IMG/VR virus record: IMGVR_UViG_3300033149_001657
Location: 1-64,000 of that record
DNA: 64,000 bases
Reading direction: 5' to 3' (one strand)
Source: a virus
Taxonomy: Duplodnaviria > Heunggongvirae > Uroviricota > Caudoviricetes
Of the stretch, positions 6,370 through 51,504 are shown in pieces. Numbering within the stretch: the stretch's first letter is position 1; every line of letters begins with the position of its first letter. The position numbers were made by a program, and so were the translations under genes. The notes beneath the pieces were generated by a model. It was not told the origin of the DNA and did no database searches. It saw only the letters and a list, made by a program, of their open reading frames with translations.

Positions 6370-6753
6370 TTAAAGATCTATAGCTAAAAGTGCTCTGATA
6401 AATCTCTCAGCTTCATACTTGTCTGGATTATAAATCAGTATCCAATCGTTTATTTTCTTTGATGATATAACCTTACGGTTATAGGTTCCTAGAATGACAC
6501 ATAATTCTTTTACCATATCGTGATATGTGTTATCAAACAAAAATCTGATGATTTCTGATGATCCTTCTAATGAAAGGAGCTCATCAGAGATATTCATTGA
6601 TAAGACAATTCTAGGTCTGAGATAGATAACAGTATCATTGTGTGTTGGTCTATGTTCTAGATGAACATCAACATCTATACCTTTCTCTCTAAAAAACTCT
6701 CTTATTTTCTCACGAGTAATAATAACTTCTTTCTCCACTAGAACCCTCTCCAC
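6370..6753 (-). CDS. hypothetical protein (127 aa)
   Basis: ORF in the gene chain. Confidence 0.35.
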   Translation of the reverse strand: MERVLVEKEVIITREKIREFFREKGIDVDVHLEHRPTHNDTVIYLRPRIVLSMNISDELLSLEGSSEIIRFLFDNTYHDMVKELCVILGTYNRKVISSKKINDWILIYNPDKYEAERFIRALLAIDL

Positions 6754-11660: not shown

Positions 11661-11814
11661 CTATAGGTTCAGCTTTCTCACATAAAGTTTCGTATCCTTC
11701 AGATCCACATATTACTTCTTCATCTGGAAATAGACCACACAATGTAAATGGATTTTCTTTTTTCCTATATTGATATTTACATGGAAAACCTATACTTCCC
11801 ATTTTATATCTCAC
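11605..11814 (-). CDS. small Cys-containing protein (uncertain)
   Basis: 69-aa ORF overlapping both neighbours; possibly real with the downstream gene starting at an internal Met. Confidence 0.2.
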   Translation of the reverse strand: MRYKMGSIGFPCKYQYRKKENPFTLCGLFPDEEVICGSEGYETLCEKAEPIGESNDSVPDTRISNRSSN

Positions 11815-12103
11815 CTGCTAGTAAGACTGAACCAAAATGTTTCACTGTCTTTAATAACCATTTCTTAGCTTGTTTATGATCAGGAATTCTAGTAACTATC
11901 CTAGCTTCACAATCTGATGAGAATATCTTACCCGTGATGTTTATTATGAACTCAAACTTATCACCATAATAATCAATCTCTACAGTAATACCACTATTAC
12001 TCCTGAACTTTATCTTACAAGAAGAATTGTAATTCACAATATATATGTCATTATGTTCTCTTACCAATTCATTCACGAACCTAGTCAGAGTATCTATAGG
12101 CAT
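11804..12103 (-). CDS. paralog-family small protein (cluster 1)
   Basis: Roughly 100 aa; conserved C-terminus ..SVLLAGEI*; homologous to the 12419 ORF. Confidence 0.5.
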   Translation of the reverse strand: MPIDTLTRFVNELVREHNDIYIVNYNSSCKIKFRSNSGITVEIDYYGDKFEFIINITGKIFSSDCEARIVTRIPDHKQAKKWLLKTVKHFGSVLLAGEI

Positions 12104-12106
12104 AAA

Positions 12107-12418
12107 TCACACCTCACTAGCTAAGAGTAGTGGTTTAAGAAGTTCAACAATAGACCTAATCCATCTAATTATTTTATCTGGATCAGATTCAAATACTCTG
12201 AATCTTACAAATGTACTTAAACCAACTTTTTCGATACGTAAACAGATAGAGACTATCAGATCATAATCATGTTCCAATTTATGAATATCTACTGAGAATT
12301 TATCACTACTATAAACTACTGAGTTTAAAGATTTTCCTTCAATCTTAATAGCATAGTTCTTTACAATATATTTTTCTATCTTCCTAACACGTTCATCGAT
12401 TTGAGATAATGAATACAC
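12107..12418 (-). CDS. paralog-family small protein (cluster 1)
   Basis: C-terminus ..LLLASEV*. Confidence 0.5.
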   Translation of the reverse strand: MYSLSQIDERVRKIEKYIVKNYAIKIEGKSLNSVVYSSDKFSVDIHKLEHDYDLIVSICLRIEKVGLSTFVRFRVFESDPDKIIRWIRSIVELLKPLLLASEV

Positions 12419-12721
12419 TTAGAGCTCACCAGCTAAAAGTACCTTGTTTACATATTCAATTACAGTTAGAATCCATTGTTTAGCCCTATCTTCATCTTCA
12501 ACTGAAGAAGAAATAGTAAGCAATGAATCCTCCATAAACATATTTCCCTTAGCCTGTATCTTTATATTAAAGCCATTTCTCCAGCTGGTGATTTTAATTA
12601 CTATATGTTCATTATTAGCGATCTTAATAGTACACTCAGTATCGAAATGTACAACATAGAACTCATCAATCTCTTTTATAATCTTATTTACAAACTTAGA
12701 TAATGGACTAATAATCATCAT
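12419..12721 (-). CDS. paralog-family small protein (cluster 1)
   Basis: C-terminus ..KVLLAGEL*; N-terminus aligns with the 11804 ORF. Confidence 0.5.
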   Translation of the reverse strand: MMIISPLSKFVNKIIKEIDEFYVVHFDTECTIKIANNEHIVIKITSWRNGFNIKIQAKGNMFMEDSLLTISSSVEDEDRAKQWILTVIEYVNKVLLAGEL

Positions 12722-12722
12722 C

Positions 12723-13088
12723 TTATAGCTCCTTAGATAATTTTACTGAGGATAGAATAGCAATGGTATCATCCAACCATTTCTCTAAGGAGGATAGATT
12801 TACTTCATATGTAGAAACACTTAGATACGTATTGTTTTGGTTAAGATAAATGGTTGCTACAGCTGATATTTTACTTGGTATCAATCCAGAGGACATTATT
12901 ATTATATAACATCCATTTTCTAGGAAACATTCAAAAGTACTGTAATCTTTACTGTGATTTTCTTCTCTTATCTTATATTTGGATAGCAGGATCTGTTTTA
13001 TCTGTTTATAGAATGACAATCTTACTTTCTGTAAGAGAGCATCATAGGTCTCATTATCTTTTATATCAAAATAATGTTCAGAAGTCAA
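12723..13088 (-). CDS. paralog-family small protein (cluster 1, divergent)
   Basis: C-terminus ..SVKLSKEL*. Confidence 0.45.
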   Translation of the reverse strand: MTSEHYFDIKDNETYDALLQKVRLSFYKQIKQILLSKYKIREENHSKDYSTFECFLENGCYIIIMSSGLIPSKISAVATIYLNQNNTYLSVSTYEVNLSSLEKWLDDTIAILSSVKLSKEL

Positions 13089-13098
13089 GATTCTTCCC

Positions 13099-13443
13099 TT
13101 ATAGTTTCTGAGACAATAGAATTGAATCCAAGATATTCCTACATTTATTTATCCATCTCTTAATGTAGTCAACATCAAAATGAACTGTATAAAGTGATAC
13201 AAACGTAGCTCCCAAATAAGATGTCTCATAGAAATGTGCTATCAATCCGACATTTATTAGTCTCATCTGATTGTATGATACAGTAACAAAGTACGAATTA
13301 TGTAGCTTAAAAAATACTGAAGTAGTGTCCTCATCTACTCTCTCCTCATCTATACCATATTTTTCATCCAAATATTCCTTGATAGCGATTACTCTCTCAT
13401 CATTTAATAAATCATCTAAAGTAAGATTAGTCATAGACCTCAC
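13099..13443 (-). CDS. paralog-family small protein (cluster 1, divergent)
   Basis: C-terminus ..SILLSQKL*. Confidence 0.45.
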   Translation of the reverse strand: MRSMTNLTLDDLLNDERVIAIKEYLDEKYGIDEERVDEDTTSVFFKLHNSYFVTVSYNQMRLINVGLIAHFYETSYLGATFVSLYTVHFDVDYIKRWINKCRNILDSILLSQKL

Positions 13444-13782
13444 CTACAAGCTTTTAGCTATTCTTCTAAGATGATCTTTGTAATTCTGCCATTCTATATA
13501 AAGATAGATAAATATCCAAGCAACCCATGTATACTGAACTATTCTGCACAATTGTATGAACGTAACTCCAAGATCCTTCTCCAACGGTAAAACATAAGAT
13601 CCTAGTCCAATTAATCCAAGTCCAAACTGCCCAAGAATAGCTAGAAGTATAGAGTAAGATATAATCTCTTCCTTGATATCATCCCATTCTATATTTTTGA
13701 ATCTAAGATGTATTGATGTATAGTACTTATTTAACAAATACCACACAAAGTATAAATAAATCTTGTATCTTTTTGAATACAT
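13444..13782 (-). CDS. membrane protein
   Basis: Hydrophobic segments. Confidence 0.4.
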   Translation of the reverse strand: MYSKRYKIYLYFVWYLLNKYYTSIHLRFKNIEWDDIKEEIISYSILLAILGQFGLGLIGLGSYVLPLEKDLGVTFIQLCRIVQYTWVAWIFIYLYIEWQNYKDHLRRIAKSL

Positions 13783-13925
13783 TGTCTATCATCTCCAACT
13801 AATACACAGATCAGATGGATCTACAATCTTCCTGTGTAATCTACAATAATAAAATGATTCCATAATTTTACTACTAGTTACCAGAACAGAGTACTTGCAG
13901 GTCAGACATGATCTAGCTACCAGTT

Positions 13926-14759
13926 TCATTCTTCATCAATCCTCCTAATAATATATGGACACTTAGAATAGCTCTTCATAGGATAGTAACTATCTATTAC
14001 ATTTAATATCTCATATGGCTCTTCAATTTTAGCTATTGAGGAAGAAAATGAGCATGGAGATATAGAGCCGTCTGGAAATACTGATATTATCTTTCTACCA
14101 CAACCACACTCTTCTATCTTTCCAATTTCAAGAGCTATACTTTCATCTACATATAAGTCAAATAGCACACTTGAAATTTTAATTGTTCTCTTTAACTCAC
14201 TAGCTCCATAATTTAGCTCATAGAACTTAGGTTGTAAAGCATAGAATTTTAGTCCTTCTGTTTTTAAATAGTTAAAGACTAAAGGCATAATTCCAAGAGC
14301 TATCTTATCCAGTATAAGGTAGTTTACTCCTACTTCAAAGTTAGACAAATTAGATAAGCTATCTATTGTACTAGATATGTTCCGTATTGAACCGTTAGAC
14401 TTAACCTTATGATGATCTACTGATACTGATACTAAGTCTACGTATTCCAATGATTCAATTACTTCTGAGTTTATTATTGAACCATTGGTAGTGAGAGACA
14501 CATTCATATCACAGTGTTTAGCTGTTTTAGCTAGTTTAGTTACTATCTTTGGAAATAATAGTGGCTCTCCACCACCTATGGCTATCTGTGGAATATTATA
14601 TTCACTAGCTGCCTTTATTAGATCACAGAACCAATCCACATCTTTCTCTACAGTAGATTTGTGAATATAGCAGAATGGACAATCGAAATTACATTTGGTA
14701 GTAAAGTGTATCGATAATACTTCAATCATCATATCCATTATTTCTGCACCATTCTTCAA
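13926..14759 (-). CDS. radical SAM enzyme (CxxxCxxC), possible C-terminal auxiliary Cys cluster
   Basis: Motifs CNFDCPFCY, GGGEPLL, and C-terminal CGCGRK..SPCSF. Confidence 0.7.
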   Translation of the reverse strand: MKNGAEIMDMMIEVLSIHFTTKCNFDCPFCYIHKSTVEKDVDWFCDLIKAASEYNIPQIAIGGGEPLLFPKIVTKLAKTAKHCDMNVSLTTNGSIINSEVIESLEYVDLVSVSVDHHKVKSNGSIRNISSTIDSLSNLSNFEVGVNYLILDKIALGIMPLVFNYLKTEGLKFYALQPKFYELNYGASELKRTIKISSVLFDLYVDESIALEIGKIEECGCGRKIISVFPDGSISPCSFSSSIAKIEEPYEILNVIDSYYPMKSYSKCPYIIRRIDEE

Positions 14760-15246
14760 ACATACCTAATGAACCACCACTAGAATATGGAAATGATGAA
14801 CATATTCTACATATCTTAGCAAAAGCCTCATACGAGTTAATATCTCCATCACTTATCCAGAGCTTTAAACACTCATCTGTATATGACATAAAAATCTGAC
14901 CCTTAGATTTCTTATCTATTAGACGTACTGTTGTATAATTACCACAAGATGACCAAGATGAGATCGTCCTTCTAGCTTTCTCTGGTAACTTATTTATTTT
15001 TACTCCTATTGCTTTATCACCACAGTGATTAAATATCTCTATATCATCTGGAGATACTTCACTTACTACCTCTATTATACGTCTTGTCTTGCATAACGGT
15101 ATCTCAGAATATGTTAAACATGAAGCTCTAATAATTAGAGCAAGATTAGTCTCTTCAATAATTTGTTTAAGTAAGCTCTTTATCTCTTCAATACCTCTAA
15201 CTCCAGTACGTACCACTATCTCTGAACAATTAGGATGTATCATCAC
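14722..15246 (-). CDS. HPNCSE-motif protein, paralog A
   Basis: Starts MMIHPNCSEIVV; ends SSGGSLGMFEEWCRNNGYDD. Paralogous to the next gene. Confidence 0.45.
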   Translation of the reverse strand: MMIHPNCSEIVVRTGVRGIEEIKSLLKQIIEETNLALIIRASCLTYSEIPLCKTRRIIEVVSEVSPDDIEIFNHCGDKAIGVKINKLPEKARRTISSWSSCGNYTTVRLIDKKSKGQIFMSYTDECLKLWISDGDINSYEAFAKICRICSSFPYSSGGSLGMFEEWCRNNGYDD

Positions 15247-15793
15247 TGTAACCCCAATGCAAACAATCCTTTACTATGTCTTCATATCCATTCTTCCTAC
15301 ACCATCTCAGAAAATATGTGAGAGATCCCCCACCGTTTGGAAATGGTGAAGTCTCAAGTGCTCTAGATATGTCTGCAAATATATTGAAAGAATCCTCATC
15401 TCCATCTCCAATATTGAACTCTACAAAATCATCATCCAAACTAAGAAACACAGATCCATTCCCTCTAGACACATAGACAGATACATAATCATTATTCATC
15501 AACCATGATGGTAACTTCCTGACCAAGCTGTGAGGCAGCTTATCTTTGTGAATTCCAATATGTCTTACACCATAAGTATCTGCTATAGTCACATCATCAA
15601 GATCAATTTCTTGATATATATGTTCTCTATCGTAAAGTATTGATAGAGGAGTCTTAGAGTACGAGGTTATCCATTCATCCACAGCCACTGCAGAACTGGT
15701 CTTTTCTAGTACTGATCTTATCAGACTTTTTAGATCATCTAAATCTTCAAATTCAACCTTGATCACGAGTTCTGAACAGTTAGGATGAATCAT
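15230..15793 (-). CDS. HPNCSE-motif protein, paralog B
   Basis: Starts MIHPNCSELVI; contains NGGGSLTYFLRWCRKNGYED. Confidence 0.45.
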   Translation of the reverse strand: MIHPNCSELVIKVEFEDLDDLKSLIRSVLEKTSSAVAVDEWITSYSKTPLSILYDREHIYQEIDLDDVTIADTYGVRHIGIHKDKLPHSLVRKLPSWLMNNDYVSVYVSRGNGSVFLSLDDDFVEFNIGDGDEDSFNIFADISRALETSPFPNGGGSLTYFLRWCRKNGYEDIVKDCLHWGYSDDTS

Positions 15794-17521: not shown

Positions 17522-17821
17522 TTAGAGTTTAAGCATTAATAGAAGCCTTTCAATCTTTTCATTGAATGACTTTAATTCAAAAGAATATAGAACAGGATAA
17601 GGTAATGACTCTGATAATACAGAAAGAGCTTTTCCATCTGTCATTTTCTTCTTATCTATCATCTCTCTGATAACTTTCTTGAGATAAAGAAGGTTCCCTA
17701 ATAGAATCTCATCAAGTGTCTCAAGTCGTATTAAGCGTTTATTAAAATACTTAATTAATAGAACATATAGAACGTGTGCAGTCAATCCATCAACATATGA
17801 TTCAGCTCCATACACGTTCAT
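17522..17821 (-). CDS. hypothetical protein
   Basis: 99-aa ORF with a 4-nt overlap. Confidence 0.35.
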   Translation of the reverse strand: MNVYGAESYVDGLTAHVLYVLLIKYFNKRLIRLETLDEILLGNLLYLKKVIREMIDKKKMTDGKALSVLSESLPYPVLYSFELKSFNEKIERLLLMLKL

Positions 17822-19537: not shown

Positions 19538-19926
19538 TTAAGAGCTAATGGCTCTATTTTCTTTCTCAGATCTTGTGGTATCTTGTTGAAAAGATACTGA
19601 AGGGATTCATCCCATGTGCCACGAGCTAATAATATGAGACGTAGAGCATCCAACAACAGTCTCCTATTAAAGTACATTTCTGTAGCTGTTTCATCGGAAA
19701 AGAAATTGGTAGCATGATCAATAAACTCACAGTAATCCTTGTATTCTTCATATACCTTAAACTTATGAAGGTATTTTCTTACTGGATCATTCTCCGATAT
19801 CGTTATTTTCACTACTACATTAGATTTTTCACTTGGTAAAACAAAAGAAACTAGGTTTTCAAGATAGCTTATTGGTGAAATGATTTTGCTATTGACTTTG
19901 TACACAGACAAGAATACTAGTCTCAT
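19525..19926 (-). CDS. hypothetical protein
   Basis: 133-aa ORF. Confidence 0.4.
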   Translation of the reverse strand: MRLVFLSVYKVNSKIISPISYLENLVSFVLPSEKSNVVVKITISENDPVRKYLHKFKVYEEYKDYCEFIDHATNFFSDETATEMYFNRRLLLDALRLILLARGTWDESLQYLFNKIPQDLRKKIEPLALKCAL

Positions 19927-21191
19927 TTTATCTTCACTACCAGATCAAAGTAGTCTGGTACTCTTCTTTCATCACCATTTCTGGTAATAACCCATATCAC
20001 AGTCATGTCTGGATTTATCATGTCCTGTGTAGGAAACACTCCATACCCATCAGTGATATAAATCAACAGATCAACGTCATCTCCATCCTCCTGAATCTTC
20101 TGAAATATAGGTCTAAAATCTGTACCTCCTCCACCTTTAAGATGTAATGTGTTTAAGTCGTATTCTGACGTAATGGTTTGAGCTTCATAAAGCATTGCAT
20201 CAGAACTATAGATAGTGAGTTCTGCATTAGGTACTTCTCTGAATATCCCTATTATCTGTGATAATCCATCTCTTAGATCTTCCATACTCATGGAGCCAGA
20301 TGTATCTATAACTACTACTCCCTTTATCCCTGACTTTAGCACACTTGGTAAGTAATATCCAGCAGCTATCGATTTCTTAGAAGGTCTAGAGTAAGTATAG
20401 TCATAAGGCATATGTCTCACAATCAACTGAGGTAAATACTCCAACCAATTGATCTGTGGTTCTATCAAATCTTCTATCAATCTCTCTATACCCAATGGAG
20501 CTTTACCCATCGAGCTGGCATGATGCCATGCATCTTTTAATACCTTTCTCCAGTTAACAGTCTCTTTGTCATCTAATGCACCTTTTGGTATTCCCAGTTT
20601 ATCTAAATCAGACTTTGATATAATACCATCCTCTACTTTTTTCTTAGCTTCCTCTATATCTCTTCTGGTTATATGTTTATCTAAGCTACCACGTTTTTTA
20701 CATACTACAATTACTGAAGGAATACCACTATATCCATTAGGGTTCTTCTGTTTAAATGGACAGTTATCACAGTCACCATTGCATTCATATCTTTTAAGAT
20801 CTGGTAACTTGTCATATATTTCTTCCCATGCCATATCTTCGTACTCTCTCATGTATAAAGCTCCCAATGGAAGTTGAAATGTTTGTAGTATCAATGGATT
20901 TATAGCTAAGTCTTGAGCCATATTAGCTTTAAAATGATCTCTTCCTTCTTCTCTCTCCAGATGTCTAAGAGCCACATGCATCACTTCATGACATATTAAC
21001 CCCTTAACCTGTTCAATACTTAATTTCTTTATGTAATCTGGATTGTAATATACAACTCCATAAGGAGTAACAGCTGCTGTGTCTTCATTGGGATCTGGTT
21101 TGAATCTTAATGACATACATAGTACTCCAAAGAATGGCTGTTTAGATATCATCTGAACTCTAGCTTTAGTGATCTTCTCTTCTGGAGACAT
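19923..21191 (-). CDS. VWA-domain protein with N-terminal HExxH metallopeptidase-like domain (MoxR partner)
   Basis: HExxH motif in LICHEVMHVALRHLE; MIDAS-like motif VVVIDTSGSMS in the C-terminal half; immediately downstream of a MoxR ATPase with a 3-nt gap. Confidence 0.7.
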   Translation of the reverse strand: MSPEEKITKARVQMISKQPFFGVLCMSLRFKPDPNEDTAAVTPYGVVYYNPDYIKKLSIEQVKGLICHEVMHVALRHLEREEGRDHFKANMAQDLAINPLILQTFQLPLGALYMREYEDMAWEEIYDKLPDLKRYECNGDCDNCPFKQKNPNGYSGIPSVIVVCKKRGSLDKHITRRDIEEAKKKVEDGIISKSDLDKLGIPKGALDDKETVNWRKVLKDAWHHASSMGKAPLGIERLIEDLIEPQINWLEYLPQLIVRHMPYDYTYSRPSKKSIAAGYYLPSVLKSGIKGVVVIDTSGSMSMEDLRDGLSQIIGIFREVPNAELTIYSSDAMLYEAQTITSEYDLNTLHLKGGGGTDFRPIFQKIQEDGDDVDLLIYITDGYGVFPTQDMINPDMTVIWVITRNGDERRVPDYFDLVVKIK

Positions 21192-21193
21192 GT

Positions 21194-22450
21194 TTACTCA
21201 TCCTCATCTTCTCTTTCCATAGATAAAATATATTTCCCTATTGTTGGAACAAATAGACTCCATTCTTTAAGCTTCAGTACGTTTCTATCGAAGAAATCAG
21301 GCATCATGCTCTTTATCATCTTTAGCATGAATGCACAATATTCTCTAGGCATTCTGTCTCCAATTATAAATATCCTCCTTAGAACCTCTCTAGCTTTGTC
21401 TTCAGGTTTGTTCTTTACATAATAATAGAGATACTCTGTAAGATTGGTACATAGAGCATACAGTAGATCGTTATCTTTAGGCATCTCTATTTTATCTGGG
21501 TTCTTGATGAATTTTTCTGGAGGAGCCAATCTGTCTCTTATTCTTAGAAACGATACAAATTCCTGAGCTACATAAGATCCTACTCTACCACTAGCATATA
21601 CAAATACTCTGTCTATATCTTCAACTCCTTTAATCATATCGCTTACTTTTTCCCATGTTCTAGGTGTAGCAAAAGCTTTCTCCTTACTCTTTGGATTGAA
21701 TGTGTAGATATTAGATGTTTTCACCCTTAGAAACGATATTATTCTAGGATCTATATCGTTGTTTACTGCCCATAAAGTCCATTCCTCTACTGTAGGAGTA
21801 GCTAATTCATACCATGCAAATCTATTGCATAATGGAGCTTCAAATCGAAATTCTGGACATCCATCTATATGTCCTCTATTACCAGCTGCTACTACTATCC
21901 ATCCATCTGGTAATTCATAGTCTCCTAGAGCTCTATCGTTGATTAGCTCCCATATTGCATTTCTAACCAGTGGTGGAGCTAATGGTAGCTCATCTGCAAA
22001 TATGATTCCTCTGCCTTCTCTAGGAAACCACACTGGAGCTGTCCACTTGGTTGTGTAGTCTATTATCTGATAGTCTCCTTTCCACTTAGCTGTAAAGATA
22101 TCAAAGTGTTTTATCGGTACTAGTTCCATATGTCCATTGTATTTTACTATTGCATAGTCTTCTGGTAGTCCTAGTACTTCACCAGCATCTTTCTGAGAGA
22201 ATCTCTGATCTACTAGACAGAATTTATCTGGATGAAGTATAGGAGCTTTCGTCTCAAGAAACTCAAGTGAATATTCACTAGCTAATCTTCTGGCAGCTTC
22301 TCTTACTGAACAACTTTTACCGATTCCTATTGCTCCTTGTATAAATAGAGATCCTTTTACTTCATATGTTCTCTTTATAATATCTATTAGCTGTTTATGA
22401 TTTACTACATATATTGGTCTCTCCAAGTCTTGTATCATTTTCTCAGACAT
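21194..22450 (-). CDS. MoxR-like AAA+ ATPase (AAA_5 type)
   Basis: Walker A GAIGIGKSCS; Walker B IIFADELPLAPP; sensor VVAAGN. SD GGAGGTAATTGGT before ATG. Confidence 0.7.
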   Translation of the reverse strand: MSEKMIQDLERPIYVVNHKQLIDIIKRTYEVKGSLFIQGAIGIGKSCSVREAARRLASEYSLEFLETKAPILHPDKFCLVDQRFSQKDAGEVLGLPEDYAIVKYNGHMELVPIKHFDIFTAKWKGDYQIIDYTTKWTAPVWFPREGRGIIFADELPLAPPLVRNAIWELINDRALGDYELPDGWIVVAAGNRGHIDGCPEFRFEAPLCNRFAWYELATPTVEEWTLWAVNNDIDPRIISFLRVKTSNIYTFNPKSKEKAFATPRTWEKVSDMIKGVEDIDRVFVYASGRVGSYVAQEFVSFLRIRDRLAPPEKFIKNPDKIEMPKDNDLLYALCTNLTEYLYYYVKNKPEDKAREVLRRIFIIGDRMPREYCAFMLKMIKSMMPDFFDRNVLKLKEWSLFVPTIGKYILSMEREDEDE

Positions 22451-22474: not shown

Positions 22475-22487
22475 GATAGTAACTAAA
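22475..22487. promoter_or_regulatory. GATAGTAACTA(TC) junction motif
   Basis: gatagtaactaaa, 26 nt before the MoxR gene ATG; overlaps the upstream gene stop. Confidence 0.3.
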
Positions 22488-22926
22488 TTTTCTTTGATAG
22501 GATTACTCTTTTGATTCTCTCAACAAGTTCAGCATATCGTTTCTCACTAATAAGAGTAAATATTTGTAAATACTCTAGAATATAAACTATATCAGTAATT
22601 TCTGAATTTAGGGATCCTTCTAAAGAAAAATAATTCTTATAGAACCACTCATCAAAATCTAACAAACTCATTAAGAGTTCATATTCTTCATCAGACAAAT
22701 CTAAGATAAGTTTAGAATCATTTATTTTGATGAATGGTTTTTTATTAGATATCTTAACAAGATAAAACTTAATTGAATTGAGAATATACTCTTTCACTGC
22801 ATAATGAAGTGATGATTTAGGCTCAGCTATTTTTAATACTCTATCATTTTCAAATCTACTACCATTTTTCCTCAGAATTACAAGTGTCATTAGATGATTC
22901 AGATCTATAAATATCTTGTAACTCAT
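22483..22926 (-). CDS. paralog-family protein (cluster 2, long form)
   Basis: 147 aa; ends ..RVILSKKI*; aligns with the 23861 ORF. Confidence 0.45.
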   Translation of the reverse strand: MSYKIFIDLNHLMTLVILRKNGSRFENDRVLKIAEPKSSLHYAVKEYILNSIKFYLVKISNKKPFIKINDSKLILDLSDEEYELLMSLLDFDEWFYKNYFSLEGSLNSEITDIVYILEYLQIFTLISEKRYAELVERIKRVILSKKI

Positions 22927-23222
22927 ATCTCTTTCACCAATACAGCTCGATTAAATACATCTATTTCCTCATCGATAAGATCTGTAATGTCATCTATAGA
23001 GATATGAAATGGAATGTATCTTACAGTAAGAAGCTGGAAATCAAGACTACCCATAAATGCTCTTTTATTATACTCAAGCTCAATTACCAAATATGTAGAT
23101 TCTTTGTAAACATACATATTAAATCTGTTTAATTTTAATACTACAAATGATTCTTTTCTAGAATATATAGTAGCTTTATGTTCCTTAACCACGTATTCTG
23201 CAATATTATCTATTATCTGCAT
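22923..23222 (-). CDS. paralog-family small protein (cluster 2)
   Basis: Ends ..RAVLVKEI*. Confidence 0.45.
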   Translation of the reverse strand: MQIIDNIAEYVVKEHKATIYSRKESFVVLKLNRFNMYVYKESTYLVIELEYNKRAFMGSLDFQLLTVRYIPFHISIDDITDLIDEEIDVFNRAVLVKEI

Positions 23223-23530
23223 AATTCTCTCCTTGAATCTAATAATCCGTTGAAGAAGACTATCTCTTTGTCAATTAAGTGTTTAAGCTTTTGAATGGTA
23301 GTATTTGTTGTAAATCCCCATATACTTGCACTTATAACAGAACCAGATTGTTCATCTTTTCTAGTATCAAAAAATAACTTGATTATTATTCCAAAATCTC
23401 CTATCCTATCTACTATGACTTTAAATTTGTCTAGTTGAATCTCAGTAATATTCTCTCTTGAGAAAACTATCTTGCCATTATATTTCTCTTGTAAATACTT
23501 AATCAAACACACTTCGATATCTTGATCCAT
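23213..23530 (-). CDS. paralog-family small protein (cluster 2, divergent)
   Basis: Similar size and layout; ends ..LLDSRRELCR*. Confidence 0.4.
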   Translation of the reverse strand: MDQDIEVCLIKYLQEKYNGKIVFSRENITEIQLDKFKVIVDRIGDFGIIIKLFFDTRKDEQSGSVISASIWGFTTNTTIQKLKHLIDKEIVFFNGLLDSRRELCR

Positions 23531-23568
23531 ATTATTTCACGATTTATGACTTACTAAACAATTTATCA

Positions 23569-23859
23569 TTATAATTCTTTAGATAATAGAACTTCCTGCA
23601 TGTAATCAATAGCTTCATAAATACTATTCATAATATCTCTACTATCTCTATCTTCTTCCATAGTCATGCATAAAGTCCACTCAGTAGATAATTTAACCTT
23701 AGATAATATTGCTATTCTATAACAGCTCCAGACATCCCCTCTCATTATCTCTATTTTGAGCTTACCAAGATCAATAAAAGAATCATTATCACTTAGCTTC
23801 CTTATCTTGCAGAAATCATATTTACGTAGAATCTTATTAGCTATTTCATATATTTCCAT
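23569..23859 (-). CDS. paralog-family small protein (cluster 2)
   Basis: Ends ..EVLLSKEL*. Confidence 0.45.
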   Translation of the reverse strand: MEIYEIANKILRKYDFCKIRKLSDNDSFIDLGKLKIEIMRGDVWSCYRIAILSKVKLSTEWTLCMTMEEDRDSRDIMNSIYEAIDYMQEVLLSKEL

Positions 23860-23860
23860 T

Positions 23861-24304
23861 CTAAATTCTCTCCCTTAGAAGATATTCGTTTATTCGTCTC
23901 TTGAGCTCATCAAATTTACCTTCTCTGATAAGAGTTAAAGGTTGTAAATACTCAATTAGCAATAGAATTTCTATGCCAGCTTGAGTCTTAGAGTCTTTAT
24001 CTAACCACTTCAAAGATATCTCTCTCAATATCTCTCCTAAAGCAGTAAACAGATCGTAATCCTCTTGAGTAAGCTCATACCACTCCCATCCTGATATGAC
24101 TCTTCCATGATACGGACTTTGTACTTCATTCCTCATCTTTCTTATATTCTCAGCATACCATCTAGCTATCAGATCAAAATAATCAAAGAATACTGTTACT
24201 GGATCTTTAAACACTCTTCTATATGTCCTAGACAAAGAATGTTCATTGTCTTTATGAATAACAATGAAGTTGTCTTCACTTATAGCTGCTGTGTATTTAG
24301 GCAT
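23861..24304 (-). CDS. paralog-family protein (cluster 2, long form)
   Basis: 147 aa; ends ..EYLLRERI*. Confidence 0.45.
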   Translation of the reverse strand: MPKYTAAISEDNFIVIHKDNEHSLSRTYRRVFKDPVTVFFDYFDLIARWYAENIRKMRNEVQSPYHGRVISGWEWYELTQEDYDLFTALGEILREISLKWLDKDSKTQAGIEILLLIEYLQPLTLIREGKFDELKRRINEYLLRERI

Positions 24305-24643
24305 CTATATGCTCTCCATTAGTAGCAATCTTTTAACGAACTCTACACGTGATTTTATTATATTAAAAGCTCTATGTATATCACGAGGAAGATACTTAGC
24401 GTATAATAAAGTCATATCTTCAAGATCCATGCAGGTTTCTATTACAAATTCATAGAAATATTCCCAGTCACTCACTTTGATATAGTAGAAACCACAATCT
24501 ATTGTTAGAGATTCATTGTCTTCATCTATTTTACCATCACTAAACTCTTTCTTAAGTAACTCTTTCAATTCATCGAATGTCATTAGATTCACTCTGGATC
24601 TGAGATTGAATGTATTTCGGTATCCATCTAATAAATTTGTCAC
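24305..24643 (-). CDS. paralog-family small protein (cluster 2)
   Basis: Ends ..RLLLMESI*. Confidence 0.45.
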   Translation of the reverse strand: MTNLLDGYRNTFNLRSRVNLMTFDELKELLKKEFSDGKIDEDNESLTIDCGFYYIKVSDWEYFYEFVIETCMDLEDMTLLYAKYLPRDIHRAFNIIKSRVEFVKRLLLMESI

Positions 24644-24681
24644 ATGTCAATACACATAGTTCACTATTGGATTTACAATTG

Positions 24682-25101
24682 TCACATGGAGTCTCCATCT
24701 TCTTCATTAACCTCATTCTCCTTATCTGATATCCTAGTGTATAGAGCACTAATGAACTCAGATGAGAGTTTGTAAAGTCTAGGAGTAGTTCTACGATTTA
24801 TCTCTAACATTCCTGTTGGTTCAAGTATTTTATTGCTTGTAAGAGTCTTTAGAAATCTCTCTGCATTCCTAATATTTCTATCAGATATCCATGCCAGTGT
24901 ACTTGAAGTTATTGGTATTCCTATTCTAGACATAGATATTACAAGACATAGCAATCTGTGATTAATTAGATTTCCCCAGTGTACTCTTGAATACTGTTTG
25001 ATGAATTCTCTGAACCTATAGTAGTACCTACCAGTTTCCCAGTTCATTAGAACTCTCTTATATTCATCTAGTACCTTCTCCTTTATCTCCTCCATATACA
25101 T
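24682..25101 (-). CDS. hypothetical protein
   Basis: 139-aa ORF. Confidence 0.4.
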   Translation of the reverse strand: MYMEEIKEKVLDEYKRVLMNWETGRYYYRFREFIKQYSRVHWGNLINHRLLCLVISMSRIGIPITSSTLAWISDRNIRNAERFLKTLTSNKILEPTGMLEINRRTTPRLYKLSSEFISALYTRISDKENEVNEEDGDSM

Positions 25102-44995: not shown

Positions 44996-46399
44996 CTAGA
45001 ATAGGACAAGTGGTTTTCTCCTTGTTCTAGCTACCTTGTAATAGATATCAGCAGTTTGTCTGTTCTCTTCTATATCCCTAAGAGAAAGCATCAATGCAGT
45101 TACTCTATCATCTCCCTTTCTCTTATCCCATGTATAGAGTCTAAGCTCATTTAATAGTGGTTGAAATTCCTCTGGTACTAAGACTTTCTCTTTTTCAAAC
45201 AAAGTCTTCATTCTAACCTGTAGTGTTCCAAGTTCCTTAGCTAGATCAACAGCTTCAGTCATTATTCCTCTCATCCGTAGTCTATCCACTGTTCTCTGAG
45301 ATTCTCCTTTAGGATTCAAATCCACAAATACATAGTCTGGTCTATATCTCAAGGCATAAGCTTCTATCCAATCCTGTATGTTCTCATATTTGATTCTATT
45401 CCATTCAACTACATCAATGATTCTATACATATCGTCGACCTTGTTAGCAACTACAATAACAGACAGATCTCTATATCCGTAGTCTATACCAAATATGATC
45501 TTACCATTTTTCATCTCAGAATCATATCTAAACTTATGTATTCCAATAGAACACTTTCTAATGTCATCTATTGGAACCACAGTATTGGTAACTGGGTATG
45601 GAATACCCTCCCAGAACACTCTGAACTGTTCCTCAGTAAGATTTCTCTTAGCCTCTTCTATCTCCTCTTCTGTAAATCTAGGACAGTCCATAGCTGACCA
45701 TGAGAATCTAGCCCATGTAGTAGGTTTCCTCTGATCTTCAGATAGATCAAAATAATCTGGATATGTCTTCTTGTCCATCCACATCTCAACAAACTTTGAC
45801 GTGTATTCCATTGGAGTACCACTGAGAATGATTAAAGAATCATCGAATCCACCAACAATACGATAAGTATCGTTTATAGTGAAGTCATCTACTAATGCAG
45901 CTTCATCTATTATAACAGCTGGCACATGTTTACCCTGAATAGATTTGAGTGACAGAGGAAGAGCTCTAACTACGGACTTGGTCTTAAATCTTGTAATAGT
46001 CTTTAGAACGTCACCATCTATCACTTCACCAAATATCTCATTCTCTTTGAGAGGAACAGCTGAATACTCATATAGTGATCTAGACTGCTCAGCTGATCCA
46101 GACACTATAACTACATCAAATTTCTTCCTATGATAGTAACTATAAACCAAAGCTAACCACAAAGCTATGCATGCCAGTAGTTTACTCTTTCCAGTGCCTC
46201 CTGCCGAAACTATCATGATTCTTCTTAGTTTTAATTCTGGAAGATATGACATCACTCTAGCTTGATATGGAAATGGCTCTTGATGATATAAGTCTCTGAA
46301 AAAAGAAGAGGGATCTTTGTACCACTGAACTATCTTTAGTTGTATTGGTATTGTCATAAGTCTATCCTTCTGAGAATACTTCTTCCCATCTCTCCACAA
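44996..46399 (-). CDS. terL: terminase large subunit (TTG start, overlaps small subunit)
   Basis: Walker A SAGGTGKSK; Walker B AVIIDEAALV; C-terminal nuclease-like acidic motifs (IDYGYRD, D..D). Confidence 0.8.
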   Translation of the reverse strand: MWRDGKKYSQKDRLMTIPIQLKIVQWYKDPSSFFRDLYHQEPFPYQARVMSYLPELKLRRIMIVSAGGTGKSKLLACIALWLALVYSYYHRKKFDVVIVSGSAEQSRSLYEYSAVPLKENEIFGEVIDGDVLKTITRFKTKSVVRALPLSLKSIQGKHVPAVIIDEAALVDDFTINDTYRIVGGFDDSLIILSGTPMEYTSKFVEMWMDKKTYPDYFDLSEDQRKPTTWARFSWSAMDCPRFTEEEIEEAKRNLTEEQFRVFWEGIPYPVTNTVVPIDDIRKCSIGIHKFRYDSEMKNGKIIFGIDYGYRDLSVIVVANKVDDMYRIIDVVEWNRIKYENIQDWIEAYALRYRPDYVFVDLNPKGESQRTVDRLRMRGIMTEAVDLAKELGTLQVRMKTLFEKEKVLVPEEFQPLLNELRLYTWDKRKGDDRVTALMLSLRDIEENRQTADIYYKVARTRRKPLVLF

Positions 46400-48207: not shown

Positions 48208-49455
48208 ATGCCTATACTAATCAAAATGAATCTTGGATGTAATTTTGAGTGTGAGTATTGTTATCAGAAACCAATTAGAAAGCTAAAAGATAAAGAATGG
48301 AATCTTAAAAGAGTTAAAGAGACAATTAGAAATCTAATATTAACCATGCCAAGAGGATCTAATCAACAGATAGTTGTTCATGGAGGAGAACCATTAACTA
48401 TGCCAATAAATATACTTGAACAGTTACTAGCTCTTTCTTACGAGCTTACTGGTAAATCTAGTATACAAACAAATGGATATCTAATAACTGATAAACATAT
48501 TGAACTATTTAAGAAATACAAGACTAGCGTAGGAATATCAGTAGATGGTCCATTTCAATGTAATGTTTTACGTGGTAAAGGAAACTTGAAAGATAGAAAG
48601 AAACAAACAGAGAGAGTACTTAAGAACTTAAACAATCTTGTAGAAGCTGGTGTTTCTACTTCAGTAATAACAGTAGTACATAAGAAAAATGCAATTGGAA
48701 TAAATAGAGACTTATTAAAGAGTTTTATTTTGGATCTTCATAAGAAAGGTATCCATGGAAGACTGAATCCATGTGGAACAGATGATCCAGAGATCTCTCT
48801 TACTATTGAAGAAGCTATAGATTTCTATACTGACATGTACAAGTTTATGGAAGAGAATGGAATCTATGGATGGTCACCATTCATCGATATATTAAATTCA
48901 CTACAGAGAAAATCATGTGTATGTACATTTAGTGGTTGTGATCCATACTGTACGCCATCAGCTATTTCAGTACTCCATGATGGATCTCTTGGAGTATGCC
49001 TTAGATTATACAATGATGGTAAAGTCTATCTAAGAGATACTACACCTACTTCAATGAGAACACAACTCCTTAAAGAGACAGAATGTAAAGGTTGTAAATG
49101 GTTTGATTATTGTAAGGGAGGATGTAGTGGACTTAGTATAAATTCAGATTGGAGACACAAGGATAGATTCTGTGAAGTATACAAAGCTCTATTTGAATTA
49201 GCACATAACACTCTAAAGTTTGTTGGAATACACCCCCCATCCGTATCACAAATCTCAAGATCAAGATACGAACATTTAGATCATGGTATTAGACACCTTG
49301 ACAGTGATATTGAAAACGATCATACGGATGGAATCAAGCACTCAGACACTGGAACCACTCACCTAGATAGTAACTTCTACTCAAAGTCTGATCATTCGGA
49401 TGGAGAAAGACATGTAGATGGACCAATAGAACATTTAGATAGTAATTGGAGGTGA
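48208..49455 (+). CDS. radical SAM / SPASM-domain enzyme with C-terminal His/Asp-repeat tail
   Basis: Motifs CNFECEYCY; GGEPL; SPASM-like CKGCKWFDYCKGGCSG; roughly 60-aa tail with repeats HLDxG/HLDSN/HSDG/HTDG. Confidence 0.7.
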   Translation: MPILIKMNLGCNFECEYCYQKPIRKLKDKEWNLKRVKETIRNLILTMPRGSNQQIVVHGGEPLTMPINILEQLLALSYELTGKSSIQTNGYLITDKHIELFKKYKTSVGISVDGPFQCNVLRGKGNLKDRKKQTERVLKNLNNLVEAGVSTSVITVVHKKNAIGINRDLLKSFILDLHKKGIHGRLNPCGTDDPEISLTIEEAIDFYTDMYKFMEENGIYGWSPFIDILNSLQRKSCVCTFSGCDPYCTPSAISVLHDGSLGVCLRLYNDGKVYLRDTTPTSMRTQLLKETECKGCKWFDYCKGGCSGLSINSDWRHKDRFCEVYKALFELAHNTLKFVGIHPPSVSQISRSRYEHLDHGIRHLDSDIENDHTDGIKHSDTGTTHLDSNFYSKSDHSDGERHVDGPIEHLDSNWR

Positions 49456-49460
49456 AATAA

Positions 49461-50234
49461 ATGGAGCCTTTTACTAGAATATTATGGTTTGATCAGAAGA
49501 CAAAGCAGATATGGAAAAGACAAATTGAACAAGCTAGAAGACTCTATGAAGCTGTAGAGTTTGCTACTTTTGAAGCTGGTATGAGAGATGTCTATGTTAT
49601 GCACATATATCCAGAGAAGATATCTCAGCAACTAGAAATGATAGCTAAAGGTAAGTATGTTTTTCTTCCTATTCTGAAGAGTAAACGCTATTCTGGATTC
49701 TCTCACAGACATATACCACCAAAACCTGGTGATCCATATTTCATTTACGGAGTAGTAGCCAGAAATCTGGAGGATGCTGAGAGGTTCAAGGAATGTTCCA
49801 TTGGAAACAAGGTAGATCATGTAGAGATTGGAAGATTACTTGGATATCCTGAATGTTGTACAGAATTCTTTGATAAAGTCTGGAATAAGAAAAGCATAGA
49901 TCCAATCTATGAAGCTTATGGTTCAGAGACTTCTATTCATCCATTCTGCAATCAAGCTTTAAGATACTTTGGCATTAGACTAACACCTCATCTTGTTTGC
50001 TCTCCAACATGCAAGAGAACTATTGAAATGGGTAAGAAGTGGTTCAAAGTAGCTGAATCAATAGACTATGGATCTGCTCATACTCTTTTGAAGTTACTAT
50101 CCATGCCGTTTAAATGGTCATGTCTAAATGGATGTGCAATTATAGACACTGAACTATTTAGAGGTGTAACTAATTCGGATAAATGTTCAGAGGAAAAGGT
50201 TGTGATAAATCATGGATGGAACAAAGAACTTTAG
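49461..50234 (+). CDS. Cys-rich protein (GYPECC motif), probable partner of the rSAM enzyme
   Basis: SD GGAGGTGA then ATG; motifs LLGYPECCTEFF, CSPTCKR, CLNGC. Confidence 0.45.
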   Translation: MEPFTRILWFDQKTKQIWKRQIEQARRLYEAVEFATFEAGMRDVYVMHIYPEKISQQLEMIAKGKYVFLPILKSKRYSGFSHRHIPPKPGDPYFIYGVVARNLEDAERFKECSIGNKVDHVEIGRLLGYPECCTEFFDKVWNKKSIDPIYEAYGSETSIHPFCNQALRYFGIRLTPHLVCSPTCKRTIEMGKKWFKVAESIDYGSAHTLLKLLSMPFKWSCLNGCAIIDTELFRGVTNSDKCSEEKVVINHGWNKEL

Positions 50235-50874
50235 ATATTGTGTAGCAACTCTTGTTGGGAGACACAAGATCTATAGTACGAAAGATTTTATAGAACATTT
50301 AGAAAGAGTTACTGTACAGCCAGAGGTTATCGTTGTTTCATCCATACCAGAGATACATGAGATATTCTTCAGATATCAAAAGAATATACCAGTAGTTGGA
50401 ATAACTGGAGATCATGATGAAGGAAGAAATAGAATAGTAGACACTACTTCTGCTAGGGAATCTCTTAGACAATATATTATAAAGAATAACTATGAATGGT
50501 CACTATGGTTGGATAATGACATACTAGTACCATCCAATATAACTGAAAAATTCTTATCGTATCTAAGAAATAATCCTGAAGTTAAAATGGTTCATTCATA
50601 TCATCCAGCTAGACAGTATGGAGAGGAACTTAGACATGGAATCGGTAGTTCTTTTATTCACAAAGATCTTCTAGAAGCTTATCCATTTACTTATGCAGAA
50701 ATTAAAGGTCATTATTTAGGCGATGACCAGATTTGGTTACTAGTGATTAACCAATTAACTAGTATATATTATCCAAGATCCATCATAAGAGGAACACTAT
50801 TTGATCTTAAACATAAACGTGAAGATGGTACAGTAGCTTCCTTATCTGACAAATATAGAGATCAATTACTTTAG
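50212..50874 (+). CDS. DxD-motif nucleotide-sugar-transferase-like protein (GT-A-like, tentative), paralog 1
   Basis: Motif NYEWSLWLDNDILVP; paralogous to the next gene. Confidence 0.35.
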   Translation: MDGTKNFRYCVATLVGRHKIYSTKDFIEHLERVTVQPEVIVVSSIPEIHEIFFRYQKNIPVVGITGDHDEGRNRIVDTTSARESLRQYIIKNNYEWSLWLDNDILVPSNITEKFLSYLRNNPEVKMVHSYHPARQYGEELRHGIGSSFIHKDLLEAYPFTYAEIKGHYLGDDQIWLLVINQLTSIYYPRSIIRGTLFDLKHKREDGTVASLSDKYRDQLL

Positions 50875-50883
50875 TGACTAGAA

Positions 50884-51504
50884 ATGGAACCTTATATAGT
50901 TCTTACTCCATTTGGAGACCACAAACATTATGCTCTTAAAGAGTTTATTAGATCATTGAATAAACTTAGACCTCAACCAGAAATGAAGATTATATGTGCA
51001 GACTTGGACACAAAATACAAAGATGAATTAGAAAGTTACGATCTAGTAGTATATTACAGTCCAGAGATCTTCTCCCCTCCATCTTACCTGGAACGAATAT
51101 GTATGTCAAGAGAAATCCTAAGAAAGAAGTTCATTTATTCCAACTATGAATGGTCATTATGGATAGATTCTGATATTATAGTACCTCCAGATACTCCAAG
51201 AATTCTATATAAAATAGCTAAAGATAGTAACTGTCTGGTAGTCTCAAATGGATATCCAGGAAGCTACGGTCATGAACATGAGATCTGGCATGGATCTGGT
51301 GTTATGTTAACTAACAAGCTAGCTTGTACTGGTTCTAGATTTTGGGTAGCAGATTTCAATGGCAAGCACTTAAGTGAAGACTTTGTATTTCTAAGTATTT
51401 TAGATCAAGGTAGTTATTTTATAGAACAATATACTGGAAGAAAAGCCAGAATAGTGGGAGAATTCGTGAAAGTCAAACATCTAAGCCATAAACATAGTCA
51501 CTAA
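50884..51504 (+). CDS. DxD-motif transferase-like protein, paralog 2
   Basis: Motif NYEWSLWIDSDIIVPP; convergent overlap with the repeat-protein stop. Confidence 0.35.
   Translation: MEPYIVLTPFGDHKHYALKEFIRSLNKLRPQPEMKIICADLDTKYKDELESYDLVVYYSPEIFSPPSYLERICMSREILRKKFIYSNYEWSLWIDSDIIVPPDTPRILYKIAKDSNCLVVSNGYPGSYGHEHEIWHGSGVMLTNKLACTGSRFWVADFNGKHLSEDFVFLSILDQGSYFIEQYTGRKARIVGEFVKVKHLSHKHSH

Follow-up and report, generated by a model that had tools for sequence, protein, structure and literature searches.

The window analysed here, the whole 64,000-nt stretch of viral DNA, carries two clusters of small genes on the minus strand (Table 1). Cluster 1 consists of five back-to-back ORFs at 11804-13443 that encode proteins of 99-121 aa, and both their coordinates and their C-termini are exactly as a sequence-only reading had given them. 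Cluster 2, at 22483-24643, consists of six minus-strand ORFs, all of which that reading had assigned to the same family as the cluster 1 proteins. The six ORFs are present, but only four of them (B2, B3, B4 and B6) are members of the ~100-aa family, while B1 and B5 differ. The genes form long, same-strand arrays in which stop and start codons meet or overlap and each ribosome-binding site lies inside the last codons of the preceding gene; therefore, they are probably co-transcribed and translationally coupled. For example, the tail codons GGT GAG of A1 provide the Shine-Dalgarno site for the gene that follows, which starts with an ATG 1 nt past the A1 stop, and the tail codons AAG GAG of A4 provide that for A3. 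A sigma-70 scan found fewer promoter-like sites than in shuffles, and no terminators were found flanking the clusters on the coding strand.

Table 1 Genes of the two clusters and neighbouring features in the window.
Feature	Position	Strand	Length	Assignment	C-terminal tail	Remarks
A1	11804..12103	(-)	99 aa	predicted alpha-beta5-alpha family, A1/A3 subgroup	VLLAGEI	
A2	12107..12418	(-)	103 aa	predicted alpha-beta5-alpha family	LLLASEV	
A3	12419..12721	(-)	100 aa	predicted alpha-beta5-alpha family	VLLAGEL	structure modelled
A4	12723..13088	(-)	121 aa	predicted alpha-beta5-alpha family	VKLSKEL	TTG start
A5	13099..13443	(-)	114 aa	predicted alpha-beta5-alpha family	ILLSQKL	111 aa if next ATG used
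Membrane protein	13444..13782	(-)	112 aa	predicted membrane protein		head of cluster 1 here
99-aa gene	17522..17821	(-)	99 aa		ERLLLMLKL	tail-like, outside clusters; top background gene by tail weight matrix
DUF2201 protein	19923..21191	(-)		HExxH metallopeptidase-like and VWA-like domains (PF13203 1.4e-38, PF09967 1.4e-16)		paired with ATPase
AAA+-type ATPase	21194..22450	(-)		phrog_1297 (PHROG E 4.9e-70)		immediately downstream of cluster 2
B1	22483..22926	(-)	147 aa	B1/B5-type family	VILSKKI	directly upstream of ATPase gene
B2	22923..23222	(-)	99 aa	~100-aa family, B2/B3 subgroup	AVLVKEI	
B3	23213..23530	(-)	105 aa	~100-aa family, B2/B3 subgroup	LLDSRRELCR	
B4	23569..23859	(-)	96 aa	~100-aa family	VLLSKEL	
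B5	23861..24304	(-)	147 aa	B1/B5-type, outside ~100-aa family	YLLRERI	
B6	24305..24643	(-)	112 aa from GTG 24643	~100-aa family	LLLMESI	

The true start of B6 is probably the ATG at 24583, giving a protein of 92 aa, rather than the GTG at 24643. The orthologs P0014 (90 aa) and P0015 (92 aa) start at the internal Met, and the stretch upstream of this ATG holds a conserved Cys-rich ORF in another frame (24570-24749; 618-782 in the relative L045).

The cluster 1 proteins are true homologs, with a similarity beyond composition in both blastp and profile-profile comparisons. Blastp linked A1 with A3 (E = 7.6e-22), A2 with A5 (1e-5) and A4 with A5 (1e-6). For the profile-profile comparison, seven ortholog-enriched subgroups (A1/A3, A2, A5, A4, B4, B6 and B2/B3) were left out one at a time, and all 7/7 matched the pooled others with 91-97% probability, E-values of 1e-6 to 1e-10 and 69-100 aligned columns. 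The individual probabilities were 96.8% for A1/A3, 95.5% for A2, 96.7% for A4, 96.9% for A5, 95.4% for B4, 91.2% for B6 and 96.6% for B2/B3 (E 6e-10, 93 columns), while six control groups (the cluster membrane protein and five sets of unrelated small proteins, of which two were tail-like) gave at most 8%. The similarity is not compositional only, and the C-terminal motif is real and specific. Outside the conserved parts, which comprise only the hydrophobic core and a C-terminal amphipathic helix of ~18 residues, the identity between paralogs falls to 11-32%, in agreement with the earlier description of a diversified tandem paralog family.

The size of that family had been put at 11 members. 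B1 and B5 match each other (blastp, 1.6e-5), but against the ~100-aa profile they reach only 7% over 15 C-terminal columns, and their predicted topology differs too. They thus constitute a separate 147-aa family, and the ~100-aa family has nine members rather than 11, accompanied by two genes of another family. What B1 has in common with the ~100-aa family is only the C-terminal helix and its tail.

An AlphaFold2 model of A3 (pLDDT 91.5, pTM 0.82) places a helix at residues 6-17, five consecutive strands at 21-74 and a second helix at 77-99, with the last 10 residues at a pLDDT of 87. From this model, a family member is predicted to be a small, soluble protein with a compact alpha-beta5-alpha two-layer sandwich. 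Foldseek against BFVD returned uncharacterised jumbo-phage proteins only (E 7e-3 or higher).

Judged by sequence comparison, the ~100-residue family is previously unknown and lineage-restricted. Among 1.84e9 representatives there were 14 matches, every one the protein itself or a close relative, and a word-indexed protein search returned the protein itself, two orthologs and almost nothing else. Searches of Pfam, PHROGs and PADLOC with family members gave nothing above noise, and a 23-member profile against PDB sequences gave chance-level matches only (E 0.15 or higher).

Within this lineage, the content of the locus varies among three related genomes, and the survey that the sequence-only reading had proposed revealed two to five members in cluster 1: five here, five in a rearranged order in L001, four in L044 and two in L002/L003. 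In L006 and L045, cluster 2 has additional B2/B3-like genes as well as zinc-ribbon genes. The ortholog of A1 is absent from L001, and blastp found no ortholog of B2 in the closest relative. The nearest relatives of A2 (L001 8988-9290 and 9302-9601) lie at another position of the locus, upstream of the membrane protein gene, which itself is located within the cluster in relatives rather than at its head. Orthologs were found for A4 (L001 10273-10713 and P0016), A5 (P0006 and P0007, 74% identity) and B4 (L006 8668-8958, P0012 and P0013).

Family orthologs are 49-78% identical with a dN of 0.11-0.40, against 76-93% and 0.04-0.15 for the flanking genes that were compared, so that the family dN is 1.2-10 times that of the flanking genes (median about 4 times). 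The family dN/dS of 0.12-0.39 ranges from A5 at the low end to A3 at the high end (64% identity to its ortholog P0010). These sequence comparisons show that the family evolves faster than its neighbours, yet under purifying selection.

The C-terminal helix ends in a tail with the consensus hydrophobic-L-L-(A/S)-x-(E/K)-hydrophobic-COOH, and the same helix and tail are also carried by the B1/B5 type here and by zinc-ribbon proteins in relatives. Hydrophobic residues at positions -17, -10, -5 and -1 are present in 10/11 cluster genes compared with 4/100 other ORFs of the window, and this register is identical across the protein classes. When a tail weight matrix trained on the ~100-aa family was tested against 151 background genes, all 10/10 B1/B5-type and zinc-ribbon proteins ranked high, and at most 5/151 background genes equalled their scores. 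The top-scoring background gene, which encodes the 99-aa protein at 17522..17821, is not homologous to the family (0.8% probability) and may represent an additional architecture that bears the tail. The C-terminus of the membrane protein is likewise tail-like (RRIAKSL here, RRLAEEI in L044), and this protein is not homologous either (0.2% against the family profile). The sequence-only reading had missed both the motif on non-homologous proteins and its overlap with ribosome-binding sites.

At the DNA level, five Leu codons are in use in the tail, codons are identical at only 39% of same-residue positions and no repeats were found at the gene 3' ends. The constraint on the tail is therefore at the protein level, not the DNA level. 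A DNA-level origin as a repeat or cassette junction, as in L013/L032, is ruled out here by the same free codons and missing 3' repeats. Codons -3/-2 often serve at the same time as the Shine-Dalgarno site (GGTGAG, AAGGAG, GAGGTG) of the translationally coupled gene that follows, and in several members that have no directly following gene, E at -2 is replaced by K or R. Thus, part of the motif is a by-product of translational coupling. The need for a Shine-Dalgarno site was rejected as the full cause of the tail since it covers -3/-2 only and other tightly packed genes of the window do not have the tail. The overlap of B3 with the B2 start has made the tail of B3 degenerate and extended; B4 has kept its tail with no coupled downstream gene (38-nt gap).

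The presence of one tail on different proteins suggests that it may serve as a common docking tag for a variable set of accessory proteins. In the explanation we lean toward, tentatively and at somewhat less than even odds, the variable surfaces of these binder or adaptor proteins would recognise different targets, and the common C-terminal helix would dock them onto one shared partner; the whole module would then be a fast-turnover host-interaction arsenal of the takeover or anti-defence type. The binding, the partner and the role in the host are all what we infer from the genes. The best candidate for the partner would be the pair of AAA+ ATPase and VWA/metallopeptidase protein directly downstream of cluster 2. 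The ATPase, ~26% identical to ATPases of N4-like and other phages, adjoins cluster 2 in 3/3 related genomes, and this fixed adjacency of cluster 2 and the ATPase/VWA pair speaks for docking. Against it, the regions upstream of distant ATPase homologues (L007-L036) contained no similar tail-bearing arrays, and cluster 1 is located about 8 kb away from the ATPase.

The sequence-only reading had regarded such paralogs as typical of anti-defence, immunity or host-takeover effectors. Rapid turnover and lineage restriction would be no more than circumstantial signs of a role of this kind. We found neither an association with an aca-like HTH gene nor a PADLOC match, and neither Pfam nor PHROG gave a match for the 139-aa gene upstream (24682-25101); this lowers the claim that the clusters belong to an anti-defence locus but does not make an anti-defence function itself less possible.

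The docking explanation is weakened because in the ~100-aa family the helix is integral to the predicted fold, and its conservation could be purely structural. The C-terminal helix of the B1 model (residues 131-146), like that of A3, lies within the confident core of the model. It is possible, if rather less than probable, that the proteins have no shared partner and are independent small accessory proteins, the tail being a fold-stabilising helix end combined with the ribosome-binding site of the next gene, and that the B1/B5-type and zinc-ribbon proteins acquired the 3' segment by recombination. Wherever the next gene directly adjoins, codons -3/-2 are taken up by Shine-Dalgarno-like hexamers, members with a downstream gap frequently have K or R at -2, and another phage lineage (L013/L032) displays clear sharing of 3' ends through DNA recombination. 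The tail could also spread to the B1/B5-type and zinc-ribbon proteins by recombination within the array with no common function, which counts against docking. However, the tail here shows no conservation at the DNA level, E at -2 is retained with no coupled gene in B4, r1_B1 and r2_B5, and the register is retained across three to four unrelated architectures, whereas just 4/100 other ORFs of the window have it, although these 100 are under the same coupling constraints.

By analogy with T4 internal proteins and encapsulin cargo, the tail could instead be a virion-targeting signal, in which case the proteins would be packaged in the procapsid and leave it together with the DNA at ejection; we consider this improbable. 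The T4 internal proteins are diverse anti-restriction effectors whose only common part is a conserved capsid-targeting sequence (PMC3012670), and the T-even IPI, IPII and IPIII resemble the proteins described here as small, diverse products of fast-changing, hypervariable loci in a tailed virus that have only a short terminal peptide in common. Non-homologous encapsulin cargo proteins dock to one partner of the HK97-type fold through a common short C-terminal peptide that loads them into the shell (PMC7925596). The window does belong to a tailed virus, as it contains genes for a large terminase, a tail tube and a fibre. However, both clusters belong to the half of the window that is non-structural and lie a long way from the genes for the terminase and tail, and neither a capsid or scaffold protein nor a prohead protease that could act as counterpart was identified in the window. 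The tail here is the C-terminal end of a structured helix. In contrast, T4 uses an N-terminal signal of about 10 residues that the prohead protease removes by cutting at (L/I)xE, and encapsulin peptides are flexible extensions with other consensus sequences. The T4 internal proteins have no sequence similarity to the family.

A YbjN/T3SS-chaperone-like fold had been offered as one possibility for the family. Homodimers wrapped around an extended partner peptide are typical of the class I chaperones of type III secretion (CesT/SycE-like) and of YbjN. Their connectivity is alpha-beta-beta-beta-alpha-beta-beta-(beta)-alpha with a central helix, and the A3 model does not contain this central helix, which defines that topology. 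In addition, Pfam matches to CesT (PF05932) or YbjN (PF10722) were not found at E up to 1 in the 10/11 cluster proteins scanned. The likeness to these chaperones is therefore at the fold level only, and frataxin, TriTu, Mediator subunits and other proteins show it too. The frataxin/CyaY fold gave lower structural scores and has no sequence relationship to the family. TriTu, the immunity protein of the Salmonella Rhs toxin TreTu (PDB 7zhm_D), is structurally similar at 11% identity; it pairs with an adjacent cognate toxin, whereas the family here is viral and has no sequence-level relationship to TriTu. We consider it quite improbable that the paralogs are chaperone-like assembly factors, each holding a specific unfolded or partly folded viral or host polypeptide and possibly passing it to the ATPase/VWA pair. 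The adjoining ATPase would fit such factors, but the connectivity differs, Mediator, frataxin and actin capping protein match equally well, and rapid turnover and changes in copy number are uncommon for dedicated assembly chaperones.

Very unlikely are TriTu-type, antitoxin-like immunity proteins, as no toxin-like gene (Rhs or ADP-ribosyltransferase) was found among the Pfam-scanned neighbours (radical SAM, SPFH, DUF2201/VWA, RNA ligase and methylases), or components of a single hetero-oligomer joined by their C-terminal helices, for which tandem coupled translation would favour equimolar co-assembly and the structural matches include the heterodimeric actin-capping alpha/beta subunits, but in which the copy number that varies between close relatives would be contrary to a fixed stoichiometry.

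The docking explanation can be extended to a portable address tag that would plug a fast-changing arsenal into one machine, either the ATPase/VWA-metallopeptidase pair or the procapsid; we hold this extension to be doubtful. At least three, and perhaps five, unrelated architectures would be putative carriers of such a tag. The five possible ones are the alpha-beta5-alpha protein, the 147-aa B1/B5 type, the zinc-ribbon protein, the membrane protein and the 99-aa helical protein.

The virus itself is an uncultivated and very divergent tailed virus. Its terminase is only 26% identical to those of T5-like phages, and no tRNAs were found. The host is possibly a DPANN archaeon (Woesearchaeota), as hinted by weak binning evidence, a 3.5-kb relative contig in a Woesearchaeota MAG, together with a DUF483 match and weak matches of fibre domains to archaeal viruses. 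A literature search on DUF2201 in phages and on Woesearchaeota viruses found nothing useful.

If the tail is only structural, the clusters add another ORFan paralog family specific to one lineage, which would be real but nothing unusual in a large viral genome. If it is a true docking tag, it would provide an experimental handle on the function of the AAA+ ATPase/VWA (DUF2201) pair, which is widespread in phages, and on the way in which viruses arrange rapidly evolving accessory proteins around a shared hub. The principle of T4 internal-protein targeting would then also have a C-terminal equivalent in a deeply divergent, possibly archaeal tailed virus.

Clusters 1 (A1–A5) and 2 (B1–B6) hold a nine-member, lineage-restricted family of small proteins with a predicted alpha-beta5-alpha fold, encoded in tandem and rapidly turning over, and its C-terminal helical tail is also carried by unrelated proteins encoded in the same clusters. 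The window is virus-like, has a G+C content of 34%, carries nearly all of its genes on the minus strand, and belongs to a tailed virus because a large terminase, a tail tube protein and a Laminin_G_3 fibre are encoded. The five ORFs that the sequence-only reading had placed in cluster 1 are all present at exactly those positions. The intergenic spacing within both arrays is −4 to +10 nt, the sole exception being a 38-nt gap after B4, and the tandem family genes are probably translationally coupled. No tRNAs were found in the window, and promoter and terminator scans of it were uninformative. One stretch of this otherwise minus-strand genome forms a plus-strand island, in which the GC skew is reversed and which encodes a second radical-SAM enzyme and a protein matching DUF483.

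Coordinates of features in the window and, where a locus is named, in related DNA
Feature	Coordinates	Strand	Remarks
A1	11804-12103	-	ORF, cluster 1
A2	12107-12418	-	ORF, cluster 1
A3	12419-12721	-	ORF, cluster 1
A4	12723-13088	-	ORF, cluster 1
A5	13099-13443	-	ORF, cluster 1
B1-B6	22483-24643	-	six further ORFs, cluster 2
Large terminase	44996-46399
Tail tube protein	62565-63512
Laminin_G_3 fibre	52544-55735
DUF2201/VWA gene	19923-21191		422 aa, no intein
DUF2201/VWA gene of close relative	L006:11260-13545		761 aa, intein
Plus-strand island	48208-51504	+
Second radical-SAM enzyme	48208-49455	+
Paralog of pair	14722-15246		174 aa
Paralog of pair	15230-15793		187 aa
Cys-containing ORF	13789-13929		46 aa
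Cys-rich ORF	24570-24749		conserved at L045:618-782
Membrane protein	13444-13782		head of cluster 1 (inside it in relatives); ends RRIAKSL, ortholog RRLAEEI
99-aa gene	17522-17821		ends ERLLLMLKL, ortholog LLLMFEL
Tail-like gene	6370-6753		ends RALLAIDL, ortholog VLLPLDL
LGENAE carrier	L013:7433-7735
LGENAE carrier	L013:8711-9124
LGENAE carrier	L032:2536-2991

Blastp paired A1 with A3 strongly (7.6e-22) and A2 with A5, A4 with A5 and B1 with B5 modestly, and an iterative HMM search of all window ORFs recruited A1–A5, B4 and B6, with B2 and B3 borderline. We then compared each subgroup, with orthologs from related genomes added, against the pooled profile of the remaining subgroups. All seven ~100-aa subgroups matched the rest (probability 91-97%, E 1e-6 to 1e-10, 69-100 aligned columns), whereas the control groups, made up of proteins from those same genomes, reached at most 8% and the 147-aa B1/B5 group reached 7%, aligning over its last 15 residues only. 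On these sequence profiles, the family in the window therefore comprises nine members (A1–A5, B2, B3, B4 and B6), and B1 and B5 belong to a family of their own; the paralogous family proposed earlier is real, but its count of eleven is not. The start of B6 is probably ATG 24583, because its orthologs are 90-92 aa long and a small, conserved Cys-rich ORF (CDNCKSNSELCVLTCDKF...) fills the upstream stretch in another frame, overlapping the annotated N-terminus. A second, different conserved Cys-rich mini-gene comes after cluster 1; the ATG near 11802 is its probable true start.

The ~100-aa family had no matches in Pfam, PHROGs, PADLOC or PDB sequences, and when 1.84 billion cluster representatives were scanned in full with HMMER, the 14 proteins returned were all the window's own or from close relatives. 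Three related genomes were examined: a 109,754-bp contig (L001/L006) whose ATPase is 93% identical to that of the window, a set of short contigs (L002-L005, L043), including one that is binned in a Woesearchaeota MAG, and a third relative (L044, L045). As the suggested copy-number survey showed, cluster 1 varies from two members (L002/L003) through four (L044) to five (window and L001). The window's five all follow the membrane protein; in L001 two A2-like genes precede it and no A1 or A2 follows A3. Cluster 2 content shifts as well, from one B2/B3-like and one zinc-ribbon gene in L006 to two B2/B3-like, three zinc-ribbon and two 147-aa genes in L045, within constant borders: a conserved 139-aa gene together with a Cys-rich mini-gene bounds the cluster at one end, and the ATPase bounds it at the other. 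Ortholog identity is 49-78% for cluster genes, B1/B5 included, against 76-93% for the flanking genes compared, and dN is 0.11-0.40 against 0.04-0.15. The dN/dS of the cluster genes is 0.12-0.39, and they are therefore genuine proteins; the selection on them is purifying, though relaxed or faster. The binned contig, L043 (CAYTYH010000064.1, 3.5 kb, from a 'Candidatus Woesearchaeota archaeon' MAG), encodes a radical-SAM protein, a family member, a membrane protein and an A5 ortholog, a weak hint of a DPANN archaeal host.

An AAA+-type ATPase (phrog_1297, E 4.9e-70) comes directly after cluster 2, and next to it a DUF2201 protein with HExxH metallopeptidase-like and VWA-like domains. This pair is common across phages, including N4-like phages, and we know of no role for it. 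In a close relative the DUF2201/VWA gene has an intein with Hint and Intein_splicing matches. Downstream of the pair come an SPFH/Band 7 protein, membrane proteins, a radical-SAM enzyme and cluster 1. The 46-aa ORF directly after the radical-SAM gene is kept in all relatives (45-47 aa) and could encode a peptide substrate or partner of that enzyme. Between the clusters lies a further tandem paralog pair, both starting MIHPNCSE, with one common ortholog in a relative (43% and 65% identity) and no informative family match.

The tail motif, hydrophobic-L-L-(A/S)-x-(E/K)-hydrophobic-COOH, ends an ~18-residue amphipathic helix in which positions -17, -10, -5 and -1 (the last residue) are hydrophobic in every class. 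The same register occurs on the 147-aa B1/B5 proteins and the relatives' zinc-ribbon proteins (VILSKKI, YLLRERI, KALAEEI, RALVKEL), which are otherwise unrelated to the family. The C-terminal eight residues of the ~100-aa family were turned into a weight matrix; by its scores, each of the ten such proteins was matched or beaten by at most 5 of 151 background genes, and the hydrophobic register is present in 10/11 cluster genes versus 4/100 other ORFs of the window. Three non-family genes (13444-13782, 17522-17821 and 6370-6753) have weaker tail-like C-termini and may be further carriers of the element. We infer, tentatively, that the family members are accessory binders or adaptors that the common tail may dock to one partner.

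The main rival, which we regard as somewhat less likely, takes the tail for a structural and coupling by-product without a shared partner. Codons at -3/-2 are Shine-Dalgarno-like (GGT GAG, AAG GAG, AGT GAG GTG, GAG AG) and lie 5-10 nt before the next start, and K or R is frequent at -2 in members with a downstream gap; the x-E preference thus arises in part because the ribosome-binding site of the next gene is encoded there. As a full explanation this leaves the upstream Leu positions and the motif-free, tightly packed genes unaccounted for. A DNA repeat or cassette junction was likewise rejected for the window, where the tails use five Leu codons, codons are identical at 39% of same-residue positions and 3'-end repeats are absent. 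In another marine phage lineage (L013, L032; ATPase homologue 29-30% identical), unrelated proteins upstream of the ATPase all end ...LGENAE, because an exact 29-nt DNA repeat (CTGGGAGAAAATGCGGAATGAAATCAACA) spans the stop codon and the next gene's start; this looks like a recombination or cassette junction. Virion targeting by the tail, by analogy with T4 internal proteins (PMC3012670) or encapsulin cargo (PMC7925596), would be less likely.

An AlphaFold2 model of A3, built from an alignment of 11 sequences, is confident (pLDDT 91.5, pTM 0.82) and predicts that a helix at the N-terminus is followed by five antiparallel strands in succession and then, at the C-terminus, by a helix of 23 residues. 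A chaperone role of the ~100-aa family is less likely: the proposed likeness to T3SS chaperones and YbjN holds at the fold level only, because the central helix of their connectivity is absent from A3 and CesT/YbjN profiles are unmatched. Foldseek against viral models gave only weak-scoring, uncharacterised jumbo-phage proteins. The B1 model differs (three strands, helix, two strands, four helices; pLDDT 81.7) and had no informative structural neighbours. An immunity role or a hetero-oligomeric complex is also less likely; the neighbouring genes showed neither a toxin nor an HTH regulator nor any domain related to defence.

If the tail does dock these adaptors to a common partner, the leading candidate would be the neighbouring ATPase/VWA-metallopeptidase pair, and the shared tail is the feature of this family most worth pursuing.
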